From Escherichia phage DCP2: a stretch of 64,000 bases of DNA. Under the pieces are notes generated by a model, which saw nothing but the letters and a program-made list of their open reading frames with translations, searched no databases and was not told where the DNA came from. The position numbers and the translations under genes were made by a program. This document shows positions 7,323 to 42,179 of the stretch, in pieces. The DNA is taken from the sequence record OR780565.1; one strand, 5' to 3'. Each line of letters opens with the position of its first letter. Position 1 is the stretch's first letter.

Positions 7323-7921
7323 AATATTCAGCAATGCAATTAAAAGATTTTAAAATCAAATCAATGGATGCATCGGTGCGTGCTTCTATTCGTGAAGAAT
7401 TACTTTCTGAAGGATTTAATTTATCTGAAATTGAACTTTTAATTCATTGTATTACTAATAAGCCAGACGACCACTCTTGGTTAAATGAAATAATCAAATC
7501 TCGTTTGGTTCCAAACGATAAACCTCTTTGGAGAGGTGTTCCAGTTGAGACTAAGCAGGTGTTAAATCAAGGAATTGATATTATTACATTTGATAAAGTA
7601 GTATCAGCTTCATATGATAAAAATATAGCTCTACATTTTGCTTCTGGATTAGAATACAATACACAAGTTATTTTTGAATTCAAAGCTCCTATGGTATTTA
7701 ATTTTCAGGAGTATGCTATAAAAGCTCTACGTTGTAAAGAATATAGTCCGAGTTTTAAATTTCCAGATAGCCATCGCTATCGTAATATGGAATTAGTTTC
7801 AGATGAACAAGAAGTAATGATACCAGCTGGAAGTGTATTTAGAATTGCGGATAGATATGAGTATAAAAAGTATTCAACATACACTATCTATACTCTTGAT
7901 TTTGAAGGATTTAATCTATAA
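7319..7921 (+). CDS. modA: ADP-ribosyltransferase ModA (200 aa)
   Basis: R-S-E ART motifs (PLWRGVP, VSASYD, EQEVMIPAG); 200 aa as in T4 ModA. Confidence 0.75.
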   Translation: MKYSAMQLKDFKIKSMDASVRASIREELLSEGFNLSEIELLIHCITNKPDDHSWLNEIIKSRLVPNDKPLWRGVPVETKQVLNQGIDIITFDKVVSASYDKNIALHFASGLEYNTQVIFEFKAPMVFNFQEYAIKALRCKEYSPSFKFPDSHRYRNMELVSDEQEVMIPAGSVFRIADRYEYKKYSTYTIYTLDFEGFNL

Positions 7922-10914: not shown

Positions 10915-11597
10915 TGTTTGATTTTATTATAGATTTTGAAACAATGGGAAGCGGTGAAAAAGCAGCTGTTATTGATTTGGCTGTTATTGCCTTTGACCCT
11001 AACCCAGAAGTAGTTGAAACATTTGATGAATTAGTTTCACGCGGCATTAAAATCAAATTTGATTTAAAAAGCCAAAAAGGACAACGTCTTTTTACTAAAA
11101 GCACCATCGAATGGTGGAAAAATCAGTCTCCTGAAGCTCGAAAAAATATTGCACCGTCAGATGAAGATGTAAGCACTATCGATGGTATTGTAAAATTTAA
11201 TGATTATATCAATGCGCATAATATCGATCCTTGGAAATCTCAAGGCTGGTGTCGTGGAATGTCGTTTGATTTTCCAATTTTAGTCGATCTCATTCGCGAT
11301 ATTCAACGTCTTAATGGCGTTTCTGAGAATGAACTTGACACATTTAAGTTAGAACCATGTAAATTCTGGAATCAGCGTGATATTCGTACCAGAATTGAAG
11401 CACTTCTCCTTGTTCGTGATATGACCACGTGTCCTCTTCCAAAGGGAACTTTAGATGGATTCGTTGCACATGATTCTATTCATGACTGTGCGAAAGACAT
11501 CCTGATGATGAAGTATGCTTTGCGCTATGCTATGGGTCTTGAAGATGCTCCATCAGAGGAAGAATGCGATCCTCTGTCTCTTCCAACAAAACGATAA
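10914..11597 (+). CDS. dexA: exonuclease A DexA (227 aa)
   Basis: 227 aa as in T4 DexA; N-terminal DEDD-like FIIDFETMG; synteny next to dda. Confidence 0.85.
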   Translation: MFDFIIDFETMGSGEKAAVIDLAVIAFDPNPEVVETFDELVSRGIKIKFDLKSQKGQRLFTKSTIEWWKNQSPEARKNIAPSDEDVSTIDGIVKFNDYINAHNIDPWKSQGWCRGMSFDFPILVDLIRDIQRLNGVSENELDTFKLEPCKFWNQRDIRTRIEALLLVRDMTTCPLPKGTLDGFVAHDSIHDCAKDILMMKYALRYAMGLEDAPSEEECDPLSLPTKR

Positions 11598-11603
11598 AAA
11601 GTT

Positions 11604-11633
11604 GTTTACTTCCTCAGTTAGTTGTGGTATTAT
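11604..11633 (+). promoter_or_regulatory. T4-type early promoter embedded in an SD-sequestering inverted repeat
   Basis: GTTTAC 11604-11609, TATTAT 11628-11633; TCCTCAGT 11611-11618 pairs with ACTGAGGA 11646-11653. Confidence 0.55.
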
Positions 11634-11660
11634 AACACCATAGCTACTGAGGATAATAAA

Positions 11661-12161
11661 ATGAAAATTTATCGTGTTGAATCATCGTTTAGTATTCTTG
11701 ATTATGAAGATGCTATAACAATACGTCGAAATCTTTGTGTTCAAATAACGCCGTACAGGAGTATAATAGATTCATGGAGCGAAGAGTGGCTATTACACGT
11801 AGGTTATGACAGACCTAATTTTATGCATCATAGCGATAATAATAAAAGAATTCCTTTACCACACGAAGATAAACTATTAGTTAAAAACGCTAATATAGTA
11901 ATTAATACTAAGTTCAAGAAAGATTATGTTGGATTAGAATATCATATTCCAGGATGGTTTATAGCTCTTTATCATTTTGCTTTCGCTAGTGAATATGATA
12001 TGATGAGATGGTTCACACGAGAAGAGCGGGAAGAATTATCTTCTAAAGGATTTTATCTCGCTGTATACGAAGTTCCAGATGATCAAGTTATCATTGGCGG
12101 GCACCAAGTAATGTTCCGCAAATCGCATGCTGAACTCATAGATTTTATTGAAATGAGATAA
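11661..12161 (+). CDS. hypothetical protein (166 aa)
   Basis: ATG 11661 with SD GAGGA at 7 nt. Confidence 0.55.
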   Translation: MKIYRVESSFSILDYEDAITIRRNLCVQITPYRSIIDSWSEEWLLHVGYDRPNFMHHSDNNKRIPLPHEDKLLVKNANIVINTKFKKDYVGLEYHIPGWFIALYHFAFASEYDMMRWFTREEREELSSKGFYLAVYEVPDDQVIIGGHQVMFRKSHAELIDFIEMR

Positions 12162-12163
12162 TT

Positions 12164-12709
12164 ATGAAATTTAATTATAATCCTGAATACACACCAAATC
12201 CGGTAGCTAAACTGATTGATTTTGATGTTGTAAGCACTTATGTATGCCCTGTTAAACCACTGGAAATTAAGGAACCTACTATGACTACCACTATTGAAAT
12301 CGGCAAAACCTACAAACTGGTTGAACCTAAAATTAAAACTAATGCCTTGATTTCTGGTCATAAAACTCTGACTGATGTTTTTGGCGAAGGCGAATTTATT
12401 GTTGAAGAATTTGCCAAAAGTGAGTGGTTTGACAAATCTTACGTCATCCACAGTCGCCGGTTAGATAATAACAAAATAAAGAAAAACCTGGTTTATGAAG
12501 ATGAGTTCATCCTGTTCCAAGAAGTTGAAGAACAAGACCCTACAGACCTGTTGTGTGCTGCTGTGTCTATCCGTCGTCCTTTTGATAATCCTATCTGTGG
12601 TTGGGTAACAGACCAGTGGGTTGAAGACGGTGTTGAGCTTCTGAACGTTGTCCATGCAGGAGATTTTAGTGTAGTACCTCGTAGTGCGGTGGTAGCTATT
12701 TTAAATTAA
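12164..12709 (+). CDS. hypothetical protein (181 aa), paralog of the next ORF
   Basis: Shares C-terminal motif TDQWVEDGV-L-NVV...VP-S with ORF 12786-13274. Confidence 0.55.
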   Translation: MKFNYNPEYTPNPVAKLIDFDVVSTYVCPVKPLEIKEPTMTTTIEIGKTYKLVEPKIKTNALISGHKTLTDVFGEGEFIVEEFAKSEWFDKSYVIHSRRLDNNKIKKNLVYEDEFILFQEVEEQDPTDLLCAAVSIRRPFDNPICGWVTDQWVEDGVELLNVVHAGDFSVVPRSAVVAILN

Positions 12710-12785
12710 TAGTTTACAAACTCTTGGGACCAGAGTATAATGGTCCTGTGGAGTATAAAATCTTTTTAACAAGTGAGAGATAACT

Positions 12786-13274
12786 ATGATTATTAATATT
12801 GGTGAAATTGCTCGTGTATCTGATAAATCCCGTTCTAAAGCAGCAGGAAAATTGGTCGAAATTGCAAGCATTCAGCTTAAACATGGCGTTAAAGATGAAG
12901 ATTCTGAAGTAAAAGTGCGTATCATTCCTAAAGATGGAAAGTCTAAACCTCAGTTTGGCTATGTTCGTGCGAAATTTCTTGAATCTGCGTTTTTGAAAGC
13001 TGTTCCTGCTAAAGGAATTGAAACGATTGATACTTCACATGTAGGTGTAGACTTTAAGTGGAAACTCGGTCAGGCTATTAAGTTCATTGCTCCTCATGAA
13101 TTTAAATTTATCAAAGATGGTGGTGCGGCTGTTTATACTCGTGCTATGTGCGCATACATTACTGATCAGTGGGTAGAAGATGGTGTTAAGCTGTACAACG
13201 TGGTATTTTTAGGAACATACAAAGTCATTCCTGAAAGCTGGATTAAACACTATAGCAAAGCTCTCTATGCATAA
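12786..13274 (+). CDS. motB: hypothetical protein (162 aa; size and position of T4 MotB)
   Basis: 162 aa at the T4 motB position; symbol positional only. Confidence 0.45.
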   Translation: MIINIGEIARVSDKSRSKAAGKLVEIASIQLKHGVKDEDSEVKVRIIPKDGKSKPQFGYVRAKFLESAFLKAVPAKGIETIDTSHVGVDFKWKLGQAIKFIAPHEFKFIKDGGAAVYTRAMCAYITDQWVEDGVKLYNVVFLGTYKVIPESWIKHYSKALYA

Positions 13275-13304
13275 AGTTTAAAATTTTTTCATAAAACTAT
13301 ATAC

Positions 13305-13347
13305 ATCAGTAGTTGATTATGGTACTATATCAATATCAACTACTGAT
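13305..13347. repeat. 13-bp perfect inverted repeat ATCAGTAGTTGAT / ATCAACTACTGAT with 17-nt loop
   Basis: Arms at 13305-13317 and 13335-13347; loop holds a TGGTACTAT -10-like element. Confidence 0.85.
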
Positions 13348-13446
13348 ACAGAAAACAACTTAGAGAATAAAATGGAAAATTTGCCAAAGGTGCTGCTACT
13401 CTTCTGAAACGCATCACTCCAATGTTCAATTAATGAGGAAATTGTA

Positions 13447-13662
13447 ATGAAACGTAAAATTGTTCAGAACTGCACTAATGACGAATTTGAAGATGTATTA
13501 TTTGATCCAGATTTGGTAGTGGTTCAAAAAGAACATACCGTTAAGTTTACTCACTTGACTTCGGTTTATGTGTATGAAAAGGTTGGTGATAAACAACCAA
13601 TTTATGGCGTATTTCGTGAAATTACTGAAGATGGCACAACTTACTGGAAGGAAATTTATTAA
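13447..13662 (+). CDS. hypothetical protein (71 aa; size and position of T4 Cef)
   Basis: ORF track; ATG with SD GAGGAAA. Confidence 0.5.
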
Positions 13663-14081
13663 TGGCTATTAGATTTGAAGTTAATAAATGGTATCAATTT
13701 AAAAATAAACAAGCTCAAGAAAATTTTATTAAAGACCATACTGATAACAGAATCTATGCACGACGTTTAGGTATGGAACCTTTTAAAATTTTAGATGTTG
13801 ACTATTACGGGCGTCCTACTAAAATTGTGACATCTACTGGCATAATTGGATATTCAACATATGGTACAGTCATTGACGAAAACTTTATCTGGCTCTCTAC
13901 TAACGAAGCTGGGTTCTTTGATGAAGTGGAAAATCCATATCAGGTTGCTGAAGAACAAGAGCAGGAAGAGCAAGAACAAATAGAAGATTTCACAGAATTC
14001 CCGGTAATGAAAGTTACTATTGAAAATAATGAACAGGCATGGTCCTTGTATCAGATGTTGAAAGCACACTTTAAGGAATAA
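13662..14081 (+). CDS. hypothetical protein with acidic [10 protein letters not shown] stretch (139 aa; T4 goF position)
   Basis: ORF track; ATGA-type coupling to the preceding ORF. Confidence 0.5.
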
Positions 14082-14083
14082 TT

Positions 14084-14260
14084 ATGCCAATGTATGATTA
14101 TAAATGCCAATCCGAAGATTGTGGGCATGAATATGAAAAAATTAAAAAGATTTCTGAACGAGAAAATGATGTTTGCCCTAAATGTCATCGTTTGTCTACT
14201 CGTCGGCCTTCTGCTCCTAAGCATGTGAATGGTGGATTTTACGACTTACTTAAAGGGTAA
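14084..14260 (+). CDS. FmdB-like zinc-ribbon protein (58 aa)
   Basis: MPMYDYKCQSEDCGHEYE...CPKCH: two CxxC pairs with the MPxYxYxC N-terminus typical of FmdB-family zinc ribbons; SD AAGGAA. Confidence 0.55.
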   Translation: MPMYDYKCQSEDCGHEYEKIKKISERENDVCPKCHRLSTRRPSAPKHVNGGFYDLLKG

Positions 14261-14262
14261 TT

Positions 14263-14634
14263 ATGTTTAAAATTGGTAAGAAATATCGTGTTCGCGAAGG
14301 TGAAGAAAAGAAATATCTACTTTCTTCTATTTATAGGAATGGTTCTATTAATGCCGTAATATCTACAAGCGAATTTATCGTTGAAGATATGAAAGGCCAT
14401 AATGTTACAATGATTAGTACAGCATCTGGAAATGATGGAAAAATTCTTCACAGTTTTCAGAGTAATGTTCTAATTTATGATGAAGAATTTGACTTCTTCG
14501 AAGAAGTTCCTGAAGATTTTGATTTTGAATGCACTATCACTATGAAATCTGGTGACCCTCTTTCTTTTACAGTTAAAGATGAAAGAAGTCGCTTGAGAAT
14601 TATTAGTCTCCTTCAAGCCATTAAATTTGAGTGA
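14263..14634 (+). CDS. hypothetical protein (123 aa)
   Basis: ORF track, ATG start. Confidence 0.5.
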   Translation: MFKIGKKYRVREGEEKKYLLSSIYRNGSINAVISTSEFIVEDMKGHNVTMISTASGNDGKILHSFQSNVLIYDEEFDFFEEVPEDFDFECTITMKSGDPLSFTVKDERSRLRIISLLQAIKFE

Positions 14635-14899
14635 AATTATGAAATATGTTAATCGTTCTATCGCGGCATTAGTATTAGCAGTATCTTTAGTAGGATGTAC
14701 TGATGCTGATAATGCAACCAAAGTTTTGTCTTCAAGCGGTTTTACTAATATTGAAATCACTGGATATAATTGGTTCGGTTGCTCTGAAAATGATTTCCAA
14801 CATACTGGATTTCGTGCTATTGGACCTACCGGGCAGAAAGTAGAAGGAACAGTATGTTCTGGTCTATTCTTCAAGGATTCGACTATCCGTTTTAAATAA
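14627..14899 (+). CDS. putative lipoprotein (90 aa, lipobox LVGC)
   Basis: Signal peptide IAALVLAVSLVGCTDA. Confidence 0.5.
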   Translation: MSEIMKYVNRSIAALVLAVSLVGCTDADNATKVLSSSGFTNIEITGYNWFGCSENDFQHTGFRAIGPTGQKVEGTVCSGLFFKDSTIRFK

Positions 14900-14916
14900 A
14901 AGGCCTTCGGGCCTTT
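14899..14916 (+). terminator. terminator-like hairpin AAAGGCC-TTCG-GGCCTTT
   Basis: GC stem with TTCG loop after ORF stop; T-run interrupted. Confidence 0.4.
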
Positions 14917-14965
14917 AGCTTTATGATTACTGGAGTATAATATTCCCGAAACCAAACGAGGATAA

Positions 14966-16786
14966 GTGATGATTAAGAATGAAATTAAAATTCTGAGCGA
15001 TATTGAACATATCAAAAAGCGTAGCGGCATGTACATTGGTTCTTCTGCTAATGAAATGCATGAGCGCTTTCTGTTTGGTAAATGGGAAAGTGTTCAGTAT
15101 GTACCTGGTCTTGTTAAGCTTATTGATGAAATTATCGATAACTCAGTAGATGAAGGTATTCGTACTAAGTTTAAATTCGCAAATAAAATTAATGTTACCA
15201 TTAAAAATAATCAGGTAACAGTTGAAGATAACGGTCGTGGTATTCCACAGGCGATGGTTAAAACACCTACCGGTGAAGAAATTCCTGGTCCTGTTGCTGC
15301 CTGGACTATTCCAAAAGCAGGTGGTAACTTTGGTGATGATAAAGAACGCGTCACCGGCGGTATGAACGGTGTTGGTTCTAGTTTAACTAACATTTTTTCT
15401 GTGATGTTTGTCGGTGAAACTGGCGACGGTCAAAATAATATTGTGGTTCGCTGCTCGAATGGCATGGAAAATAAATCATGGGAAGATATTCCTGGAAAAT
15501 GGAAAGGAACTCGCGTTACTTTCATTCCTGATTTTATGTCATTTGAAACTAATGAGCTATCTCAAGTTTATCTTGACATTACACTAGATCGTCTCCAGAC
15601 ACTTGCGGTAGTTTATCCTGATATTCAATTTACCTTTAATGGTAAAAAGGTTCAGGGTAATTTTAAGAAATATGCACGCCAATATGATGAACATGCTATT
15701 GTTCAAGAACAAGAAAATTGTTCTATTGCGGTTGGTCGTTCACCGGATGGTTTTCGTCAATTAACATACGTCAATAACATTCATACTAAGAATGGTGGCC
15801 ATCACATTGACTGTGTTATGGATGATATTTGTGAAGACCTTATTCCACAAATCAAACGTAAATTCAAAATTGATGTAACTAAAGCACGTGTTAAAGAATG
15901 TTTGACTATCGTTATGTTTGTCCGTGATATGAAAAACATGCGATTTGATTCTCAAACTAAAGAGCGTTTGACTTCTCCATTTGGTGAAATTCGTAGTCAT
16001 ATTCAGCTTGATGCTAAAAAGATTTCACGTGCTATTTTGAATAATGAAGCAATTTTAATGCCAATCATTGAAGCTGCTTTGGCTCGTAAATTGGCGGCAG
16101 AAAAAGCAGCAGAAACTAAAGCAGCTAAAAAGGCTTCTAAAGCTAAGGTTCATAAACATATTAAAGCGAATCTTTGTGGTAAAGATGCTGACACTACTCT
16201 TTTCTTGACTGAGGGTGATTCTGCTATTGGATATCTTATTGATGTTCGTGATAAAGAACTTCATGGTGGTTATCCATTGCGTGGTAAAGTTCTTAACAGT
16301 TGGGGTATGTCATATGCTGATATGCTTAAAAACAAAGAACTATTTGATATTTGCGCAATCACTGGATTAGTTCTTGGTGAAAAAGCTGAAAACTTGAATT
16401 ATCATAATATTGCAATTATGACCGATGCTGACCATGATGGTCTAGGAAGCATTTATCCTTCTCTGCTCGGATTTTTTAGTAATTGGCCAGAATTGTTTGA
16501 ACAAGGAAGAATTCGCTTTGTCAAAACTCCTGTAATCATCGCTCAGGTAGGTAAAAAACAAGAATGGTTTTATACAGTCGCTGAATATGAGAGTGCTAAA
16601 GATGCTCTACCTAAACATAGCATCCGTTATATTAAGGGACTTGGCTCTTTGGAAAAATCTGAATATCGCGAGATGATTCAAAACCCAGTATATGATGTTG
16701 TTAAACTTCCTGAGAACTGGAAAGAGCTTTTTGAAATGCTCATGGGAGATAATGCTGACCTTCGTAAAGAATGGATGAGCCAGTAG
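14966..16786 (+). CDS. 39: DNA topoisomerase II large subunit gp39, contiguous (606 aa)
   Basis: GyrB-like ATPase N-terminus (MIKNEIKILSDIEHIKKRSGMYIGS), TOPRIM C-terminal part; single ORF, no gene 60 split. Confidence 0.93.
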   Translation: MMIKNEIKILSDIEHIKKRSGMYIGSSANEMHERFLFGKWESVQYVPGLVKLIDEIIDNSVDEGIRTKFKFANKINVTIKNNQVTVEDNGRGIPQAMVKTPTGEEIPGPVAAWTIPKAGGNFGDDKERVTGGMNGVGSSLTNIFSVMFVGETGDGQNNIVVRCSNGMENKSWEDIPGKWKGTRVTFIPDFMSFETNELSQVYLDITLDRLQTLAVVYPDIQFTFNGKKVQGNFKKYARQYDEHAIVQEQENCSIAVGRSPDGFRQLTYVNNIHTKNGGHHIDCVMDDICEDLIPQIKRKFKIDVTKARVKECLTIVMFVRDMKNMRFDSQTKERLTSPFGEIRSHIQLDAKKISRAILNNEAILMPIIEAALARKLAAEKAAETKAAKKASKAKVHKHIKANLCGKDADTTLFLTEGDSAIGYLIDVRDKELHGGYPLRGKVLNSWGMSYADMLKNKELFDICAITGLVLGEKAENLNYHNIAIMTDADHDGLGSIYPSLLGFFSNWPELFEQGRIRFVKTPVIIAQVGKKQEWFYTVAEYESAKDALPKHSIRYIKGLGSLEKSEYREMIQNPVYDVVKLPENWKELFEMLMGDNADLRKEWMSQ

Positions 16787-24686: not shown

Positions 24687-24741
24687 ATTTCAAAAATTTT
24701 TTCACAAAACGGTTTACAACCAAAGCATACTGTGGTACTAT
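24687..24741 (+). promoter_or_regulatory. T4-type early promoter with A/T-rich UP element
   Basis: UP ATTTCAAAAATTTTTTCACAAAAC, GTTTAC 24712-24717, TACTAT 24736-24741. Confidence 0.6.
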
Positions 24742-24790
24742 ACAACTATCAAATAAATGAACTGAAACAAACAACCCGGAGATACAAAAA

Positions 24791-39791: not shown

Positions 39792-40441
39792 TTAAACTCC
39801 GCATGCCTGCTGGTGGTGAAAGATACATTGATGGTAAATCAGTTTATAAATTATACTTAATGATAAAACAACATATGAATGGAAAGTATGATGTAATTAA
39901 GTATAATTGGTGCATGCGGGTGTCTGATGCCGCTTATCAAAAGCGAAGGGATAAGTATTTTTTCCAGAAGTTATCAGAAAAATATAAATTAAAGGAACTT
40001 GCTTTAATCTTTATAAGCAATCTGGTTGCTAACCAGGATGCTTGGATTGGTGACATCTCTGACGCTGATGCACTTGTGTTTTATCGTGAATATATCGGAC
40101 GCTTAAAGCAAATTAAATTTAAGTTTGAAGAAGATATTCGCAACATTTATTATTTTAGTAAAAAAGTTGAAGTTTCTGCTTTTAAAGAAATCTTTGAGTA
40201 TAATCCAAAAGTTCAATCAAGTTATATTTTTAAACTACTTCAATCGAATATAATTTCGTTTGAGACGTTTATCTTGCTTGATTCGTTTTTAAATATAATC
40301 GATAAACATGATGAACAGACTGATAATTTAGTCTGGAATAATTATTCTATAAAGTTAAAAGCTTATAGAAAAATTTTAAATATTGATTCACAGAAAGCTA
40401 AAAGTGTTTTCATTGAAACTGTGAAATCTTGCAAGTATTAA
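39788..40441 (+). CDS. 59: helicase loader gp59 (217 aa)
   Basis: 217 aa as in T4 gp59; synteny 33-59-32. Confidence 0.9.
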   Translation: MIKLRMPAGGERYIDGKSVYKLYLMIKQHMNGKYDVIKYNWCMRVSDAAYQKRRDKYFFQKLSEKYKLKELALIFISNLVANQDAWIGDISDADALVFYREYIGRLKQIKFKFEEDIRNIYYFSKKVEVSAFKEIFEYNPKVQSSYIFKLLQSNIISFETFILLDSFLNIIDKHDEQTDNLVWNNYSIKLKAYRKILNIDSQKAKSVFIETVKSCKY

Positions 40442-42081: not shown

Positions 42082-42136
42082 ATTTCAAAAATTTTTTCAC
42101 AAAACTGTTTACACCTCTGTTCTTCTATGGTACTAT
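42082..42136 (+). promoter_or_regulatory. T4-type early promoter with UP element (duplicate of the one at 24687)
   Basis: Identical 31-nt CTTTTTTATTTCAAAAATTTTTTCACAAAAC, GTTTAC 42107-42112, TACTAT 42131-42136. Confidence 0.6.
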
Positions 42137-42179
42137 ACAACTATCGGCAATACTGCTGACGATTAAAGAGGAAAATAAT

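Follow-up and report, generated by a model that had tools for sequence, protein, structure and literature searches.

A 13-nt inverted repeat around the −10 element of an early-promoter cassette between motB and cef: a putative boundary element in read-through RNA of a T4-like phage

The interval between motB and cef in Escherichia phage DCP2 poses a simple question: what is a perfect 13-nt inverted repeat doing there, with a promoter −10 sequence in its loop and a tiny open reading frame behind it? Throughout, "the window" refers to the whole stretch of DNA that was analysed (64,000 nt), and all positions are given within it. An earlier note, made from the letters alone, had offered three possible roles for the palindrome—a protein-binding operator, an RNase III-type processing site, or an attenuator coupled to translation of the tiny ORF. 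The reading we prefer, and hold to be reasonably probable as a whole, is that the palindrome belongs to an early-promoter cassette and yields a hairpin marking read-through RNA, where it would serve as a putative boundary element.

The palindrome and the promoter around it

In this Tequatrovirus (T4/T2-like) window, the ORF list and the T4 annotation place the genes in the order dexA, motB.2, motB.1, motB, the flagged interval, cef, goF, 39.2, and gene 39. The 71-aa ORF at 13447, which the earlier note had put in the cef position, is indeed cef. Gene 39 (14966-16786) is one continuous ORF of 606 aa here and undivided also in T2 and RB69, but is split into 39 and 60 in T4; the window thus derives from a relative of T4 and not from T4 itself. 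The flagged interval is 95–99% identical to 448 phage records, T4, T2, and T6 among them, and the same palindrome-bearing sequence is present in T4 itself. Across 12700-13800, no Rfam family matched with E up to 1, and no tRNA or tmRNA was found in the 64-kb window. The T4 RefSeq record has no promoter features at the motB–cef interval. The features on which the argument depends are as follows:

12712..12741, + strand: P_motB, a canonical early promoter (GTTTAC...TATAAT; TTTACA-17-TATAAT, 11/12) and the nearest source of read-through RNA
12786..13274, + strand: motB, the upstream gene, 162 aa (ORF list, T4 annotation)
13280..13297, + strand: UP element, AAAATTTTTTCATAAAAC, aligned without gaps to promoters 42107 and 24712 and to the e.8 cassettes of Mosigvirus/Dhakavirus
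13299..13305, + strand: degenerate −35, reading ATATAC (13299-13304) in the GTTTAC register and TATACA in the sigma-70 register
13305..13317, + strand: left arm of the palindrome, filling the promoter spacer (−30 to −18) and predicted to occur in read-through RNA only
13320..13328, + strand: extended −10, TGG + TACTAT (TGGTACTAT)
13335..13347, + strand: right arm, with A13335 as the predicted +1 and thus the first 13 nt of a locally initiated transcript
13362..13365, + strand: decayed Shine-Dalgarno, AGAG here and GGAG in T4, T2, and other relatives
13372..13407, + strand: micro-ORF, MENLPKVLLLF, stop at 13405-13407, in which 5′ codons of phrog_3720 are fused out of frame to the 3′ end of that gene
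13379..13433, + strand: remnant 3′ coding sequence, up to the original TAA at 13431-13433 (T2 alignment)
13447..13662, + strand: cef, 71 aa, the first intact gene 3′ of the cassette (phrog_1354, E 4.7e-38; T4 annotation)

The arms, ATCAGTAGTTGAT (13305-13317) and ATCAACTACTGAT (13335-13347), are exact reverse complements of each other, separated by 17 nt, just as the earlier note had located them, and neither has a further copy in the window. They are not, as had been claimed, the longest perfect palindrome there, since a second 13-nt inverted repeat at 39849-39861 / 39896-39908 (AATTATACTTAAT / ATTAAGTATAATT), with 34 nt between its arms, equals them in length. In the predicted RNA fold, the helix continues beyond the 13 bp through a 2x2 internal loop into a further 5 bp (13320-13324 / 13328-13332) closed by a 3-nt loop, CUA, which falls in the middle of the −10 hexamer. 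The 101-nt RNA spanning 13285-13385 has a minimum free energy of −21.1 kcal/mol (z = −3.76), and 0/200 shuffles fold as well; taken alone, the hairpin reaches −19.4 kcal/mol as sense RNA and −16.4 as antisense. Of the 13 pairs in its AT-rich stem, 5 are G-C, and the bases directly 3′ of the stem, ACAGAAAACAAC, form no U-tract. When the 64-kb window was shuffled with dinucleotide composition preserved, perfect repeats of 13 nt or more (loop 3-60) occurred on average 0.18 times, against the two observed, and at least one arose in 12% of shuffles, so that length alone does not exclude chance. By itself, the palindrome is only modestly unusual; the comparative evidence is stronger.

A self-BLAST of the interval led to two further sites in the window, 42088-42145 and 24693-24755, both of them canonical T4 early promoters, and the segment 13280-13347 aligns with the window's canonical early promoters column by column and without gaps. 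T4 early promoters consist of an UP element, a −35 GTTTAC, a TGn motif, and a −10 (PMC2988021). The palindrome cassette shares with them the UP element (common form AAAATTTTTTCAyAAAAC), the TGn, the −10 TACTAT, the 17-bp spacing (read off the sequence from TATACA to TACTAT), and the leader motif ATCAACTAC, which also follows promoters 21066 and 21572 and recurs in RB69. The extended −10 is identical at promoters 21066, 21572, 24712, and 42107, bearing out the earlier observation that the loop holds the −10 of other early promoters. Where the canonical promoters have GTTTAC, however, the cassette has ATATAC, and its spacer instead reads as the leader's reverse complement. The earlier statement that no GTTTAC lies upstream is therefore literally true but misleading, because ATATAC stands behind the UP element in the exact register; it matches GTTTAC at 4 of 6 positions and is fixed across all 19 unique Tequatrovirus sequences. 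A sigma-70 promoter scan did not call the site at 13299-13328. By this homology, the palindrome is located inside a T4-type early promoter, whose activity is predicted, as is a +1 at 13335, 7 nt past the −10 hexamer.

Other assignments for the interval were rejected. Direct reading of 13275-13350 revealed neither a MotA box (TGCTT at −30) nor a late promoter (TATAAATA), which rules out a middle or late promoter, and the table of mapped T4 middle promoters has none at 6.5-6.6 kb (PMC2988021). A second, tandem promoter starting from GTTTAA (13277) would have no usable −10 with a terminal T 15-18 bp away. As for a replication origin, the interval corresponds to ~6.6 kb in T4, whereas oriA is found near soc, and the T4 origins have no motif in common (PMC3016281).

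Comparison among relatives, which the earlier note had recommended as a check, showed that the palindrome is retained and that arms and loop are alike invariant: positions 13285-13348 do not vary in 19 unique Tequatrovirus sequences, whereas about 30% of flanking columns do, and 471 of 498 phage records agree at every base of a 55-nt core (13296-13350). A single variant, A13308 to G, was seen, and all four variant records examined (three chosen by identity score alone, plus SA21RB) had it. It turns an A-U pair into G·U in sense RNA (−18.7 kcal/mol) and breaks the antisense fold (−11.7), although about half of all transitions in any stem keep pairing in one strand. The change fits a sense-strand RNA helix but probably represents one lineage or event. 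The SA21RB record, OL960580.1 (6096-6146; L069 339-389), carries this variant and annotates the palindrome as a rho-independent terminator (WebGeSTer). The spacer of P_motB is likewise nearly invariant in the same relatives, so the invariance of the arms is not by itself creditable to the hairpin and cannot be separated from promoter conservation or recombinational homogenisation.

A deletion scar and the history of the cassette

The coordinates reported earlier for the tiny ORF (ATG 13372, MENLPKVLLLF, stop 13405-13407, before the 71-aa ORF at 13447) are correct, and comparison with relatives explains what it is. In T2, RB5, GiZh, and about half of the sampled relatives, an intact 89-aa gene (phrog_3720; T2_009) starts from the same ATG, whereas the window, T4, and the remaining relatives have a 208-bp deletion relative to T2. 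The deletion lies between short AAAA(C/T)T repeats, with its junction within AAAA(T/C)T at about 13375-13380. Among relatives the residual stump differs, with 3 additional nt in one (L004) and a 1-nt loss in another (L007), where the frameshift leaves 4 codons. On this alignment evidence, the micro-ORF is a deletion scar and not a leader peptide. An attenuator coupled to its translation, as the earlier note had suggested, is contradicted by a stump that varies in both length and frame, and a leader-peptide attenuator was rejected because the ORF is not conserved and is replaced by the 89-aa gene in about half of relatives.

The cassette itself recurs elsewhere: a stretch of about 105 bp, running from the UP element through the second codon, is found 5′ of e.8 in RB69, phiC120, ESCO10, and MC06 (Mosigvirus and Dhakavirus) at 79-87% identity. 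The two downstream genes, e.8 (phrog_2678) and the Tequatrovirus cassette gene (phrog_3720), encode unrelated proteins, and homology of the deleted gene to e.8 was rejected as a reason for the common cassette (BLASTP E 2.7, different PHROGs). Because the same cassette precedes unrelated genes, we regard it as a shared regulatory module. In the e.8 copies the palindrome is absent: the −35 there is GTTTAC and the spacer reads ATCCCTGTTCTTCC. Their difference from the window is confined to one clustered patch, −36 to −15, in which about 10 of 21 positions are changed, the rest being nearly identical; MC06 matches the window base for base from the −10 to the leader. This pattern looks like a single patch replacement, in which the spacer would have received the leader's reverse complement. 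In RB5 (L024), GiZh (L023), and SA21RB (L069), a motB-like paralogue replaces motB 5′ of the cassette, and since homology to the window restarts exactly at TGCATAAAGTTTAAA in all of them, the cassette edge is a mosaic breakpoint.

Hairpins in read-through RNA

With the left arm in the promoter spacer and the right arm at the predicted start of transcription, the hairpin would form only in RNA entering from upstream, as from P_motB, and the scan revealed no terminator-like site between P_motB and the palindrome. The absence of the 5′ arm from local transcripts thus follows from geometry, given the predicted +1. The left arm lies 31 nt past the motB stop codon, so a terminating ribosome would not cover it. 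In read-through RNA, the extra cost of opening the RBS behind the palindrome is +1.6 kcal/mol in the window and +0.6 kcal/mol in T2. Sequestration of the RBS, whether by the palindrome or by an outer helix (13285-13292 / 13372-13379), was accordingly rejected for its small computed effect, and with the RBS left unsequestered by the hairpin, the best-understood function of this architecture does not apply. The outer helix in the read-through fold pairs the U-run of the UP element, UUUUUCAU (13285-13292), with the start-codon region of the dead ORF, AUGGAAAA (13372-13379).

P_motB has a repeat of its own flanking the −10 (GGACCA/TGGTCC), and the corresponding extra cost of RBS opening in read-through RNA is +2.0 kcal/mol. 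In one relative (L006), a C-to-T change in the left arm of this repeat retains a G·U pair. Sequence 5′ of P_motB is swapped in T2, L005, and L006, with homology restarting at the promoter.

From the window and 50 kb of RB69 we collected 32 canonical promoters (GTTTAC-N-TAnnnT) for comparison. A complementary run of at least 8 nt between the spacer and the downstream 45 nt was present at 5/32 promoters, compared to 0.5% of permuted pairs, and at 6/30 the RBS was costlier to open in read-through than in local RNA by at least 10 kcal/mol, compared to 1.6% of chimeras, with the excess of RBS-locking promoters over permuted and chimeric controls being clear at the strong end only. Many spacer targets are the Shine-Dalgarno itself, as at 11604 in the window (TCCTCAGT/ACTGAGGA) and at 7429 in RB69 (13 bp, TTCTCCTCTGGTT/AACCAGAGGAGAA). 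Spacers complementary to the Shine-Dalgarno or start codon occur in the window at 11604, 1857, 6643, 21572, 50936, and 57134 and in RB69 (L021) at 7429 and 20523; the ribosome-binding sites of these promoters are predicted to be locked in read-through RNA (+10 to +19 kcal/mol) and open in their own RNA. The class in which the RBS stays open comprises the palindrome promoter and promoters 57526, 54242, and 43104.

A related arrangement is known from T4 e, soc, 49, and I-TevI, where the promoter falls within the sequence of a hairpin and only longer transcripts can form it (PMC3014915). There, as proposed here, local transcripts lack the 5′ arm and RNA initiated upstream folds. Those cases involve late promoters, however, and their 3′ arm holds the Shine-Dalgarno or AUG, whereas the palindrome belongs to a sigma-70-type early promoter, is centred on the −10, and leaves the RBS open. 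The sister early promoters 11604, 21572, 50936, and 57134 do fit the mechanism of e, soc, 49, and I-TevI.

Beyond Tequatrovirus, we took cef loci from IMG/VR and metagenomes, where scanning with a cef profile turned up just a few lineages not already represented. With the exception of an RB49-like locus, the cef-proximal early promoters of other genera have an inverted repeat around the −10, in lineage-specific sequences: GGTGTAGG/CCTACACC; GGTAGGAGC/GCTCCTACC; AGGGCTAT/ATAGCCCT; GGTCTAT/ATAGACC; TGTCTAT/ATAGACA; and TAGGGTA/TACCCTA. These hairpins are 8-13 bp long and show both compensatory and G·U changes. In an ungapped alignment of 17 distinct non-Tequatrovirus sequences, 8 of 14 pairs were changed on both sides, 79% of cells were paired (31-46% with slid partners), and the covariation score was reached by 0/500 shuffles. 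In 12 of 19 sequences, the sense RNA folded more stably than the antisense. As these cassettes are non-homologous to that of Tequatrovirus and centred about 3 nt farther upstream, they support the architecture, not the Tequatrovirus sequence. The most divergent cef locus (L020/L049, 44% identity) has, about 60 nt 5′ of cef, a terminator-type hairpin (AAAAAGAGGT/ACCTCTTTT) followed by a T-run, with the −35 GTTTAC in its loop—the canonical layout of a PeSL element, unlike all other cef loci—and is presumably RB49-like by this layout.

PeSL elements combine an AT-rich region, early promoter, stem-loop, Shine-Dalgarno, and ATG; they are found at indels and shuffle ORFs (PMC2839356, PMC4122927). 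The cassette resembles them as a composite intergenic module placed before unrelated ORFs (phrog_3720 in Tequatrovirus, phrog_2678 in Mosigvirus/Dhakavirus) and in its association with indels and mosaic junctions, namely the 208-bp deletion directly 3′ and the swapped upstream gene in RB5, GiZh, and SA21RB. In PeSL of the T4/PST type, on the other hand, the stem-loop is located immediately 5′ of the promoter and regarded as a terminator (PMC4122927), whereas the stem-loop described here, which surrounds the −10, arises from the spacer together with the initial bases of the transcript and lacks a U-tract. The element thus shares traits with both PeSL and promoter-in-hairpin control and is a member of neither; the RBS-open, −10-centred class and its covariation across genera appear to have no account in the literature compared.

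A boundary in polycistronic RNA and its rivals

In the reading we prefer, the cassette (UP element, weakened −35, TGn, −10, leader, Shine-Dalgarno, ATG) would once have driven the 89-aa gene and, since the deletion, would face cef. RNA begun at the local promoter would contain the right arm only and stay open, while RNA from P_motB or farther 5′ would contain both arms and fold into a stem-loop of about −19 kcal/mol around the −10 sequence. Our best guess is that this read-through hairpin would act as a boundary in polycistronic RNA, either as an exonuclease block or as a processing site after the AU-rich UP-element RNA, so that the motB message and the one downstream of it would be uncoupled. 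We favour such a role because the stem directly follows AU-rich UP RNA and precedes a GGAG ribosome-binding site, the type cut by RegB (PMC3014915); placed between the two, it could protect either processing product from exonucleases. Of the earlier interpretation, the −10 in the loop stands and an RNA-level role is plausible, with processing as one candidate, but the −35 context of the promoter had been missed and the micro-ORF is a scar.

The most serious rival, although we think it unlikely, is that the palindrome is a neutral by-product: a templated strand-switch or patch conversion would have copied the reverse complement of the leader, and the result would persist through promoter conservation and recombination with no function of its own. 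The single clustered patch (~10/21 positions) in a 105-bp stretch otherwise near-identical to the e.8 cassettes is consistent with such an event, as are cassette edges that are mosaic breakpoints and so fit recombinational spread; yet the sole variant found retains pairing in sense RNA, and the analogous −10-centred, cef-proximal hairpins of other genera covary. Conservation is also accommodated, for Tequatrovirus promoter cores are near-invariant in general, spacers included (P_motB is an example), and the unmasked RBS and a repeat length that is not very rare by chance add to the case. Against this must be set the enrichment of spacer-leader complementarity over permuted pairs across early promoters.

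We consider it improbable that the element is an attenuator or partial terminator insulating the cassette, at which polymerase arriving from motB would pause or stop, leaving downstream genes dependent on the local promoter. Termination of transcription from upstream has been proposed for PeSL stem-loops and was measured for one of them (PMC2839356); a true terminator hairpin surrounds the −35 at the RB49-like cef locus; and one record (OL960580.1) labels the palindrome a rho-independent terminator on a WebGeSTer prediction. The stem is, however, followed by ACAGAAAACAAC and not by a U-tract, it is AT-rich (5/13 G-C pairs), and a consensus scan of 11400-15100 revealed no terminator-like site on the + strand; an intrinsic terminator was rejected on the missing U-tract and the negative scan. 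In T4/PST PeSL, moreover, the −10 falls outside the stem-loop, which stands 5′ of the promoter (PMC4122927).

Cleavage of the read-through RNA at an RNase III-type site, separating the motB and downstream messages, seems to us less probable still. The helix would be exclusive to polycistronic RNA and stacks to about 20 bp (13 bp, 2x2 internal loop, 5 bp); a helix of ~20 bp is within the size range of RNase III substrates, which span about two turns of dsRNA. No Rfam family matches the region, however, and the analogous hairpins elsewhere, at 8-13 bp, are short for RNase III.

Least probable is a protein operator, one of the roles the earlier note had offered; here a dimeric DNA-binding protein on the two 13-bp half-sites flanking the −10 would repress or activate the promoter. 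The perfect dyad does overlap the core promoter, and its sequence is invariant among close relatives, but the half-sites lie 30 bp apart centre to centre, the arms have no second copy in the window, analogues in other genera keep pairing (G·U included) rather than sequence, and MotB, rejected as the binding protein, binds DNA without detectable sequence specificity (PMC6070864).

Returning to the boundary hairpin, we note that the element is assembled from known parts, and that it bears on annotation: the motB–cef interval is a promoter cassette beside a gene-deletion scar, the micro-ORF should not be counted as a gene, and the palindrome should lose the label of rho-independent terminator that one database record gives it.

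For phage gene regulation, T4 is the reference system, and many of its early genes are transcribed both from their own promoter and by polymerase arriving from upstream genes; to our knowledge, differential handling of read-through and local RNA is understood for a few late-promoter cases only. We tentatively suggest, as a possibility we still find doubtful, that the spacers of T4-like early promoters may carry a second code, a 5′ hairpin arm labelling transcripts as read-through or local, in which about a quarter would hide the RBS and the −10-centred, RBS-open class, in which we would place the palindrome together with the covarying cef-proximal hairpins of other genera, would constitute an undescribed processing, stability, or insulation signal for the balance between immediate- and delayed-early expression. 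If spacers do routinely encode a 5′ arm specific to read-through RNA, this would provide a simple, testable rule for uncoupling cistrons in a compact genome and would account for the conservation of promoter spacers that are expected to drift freely.
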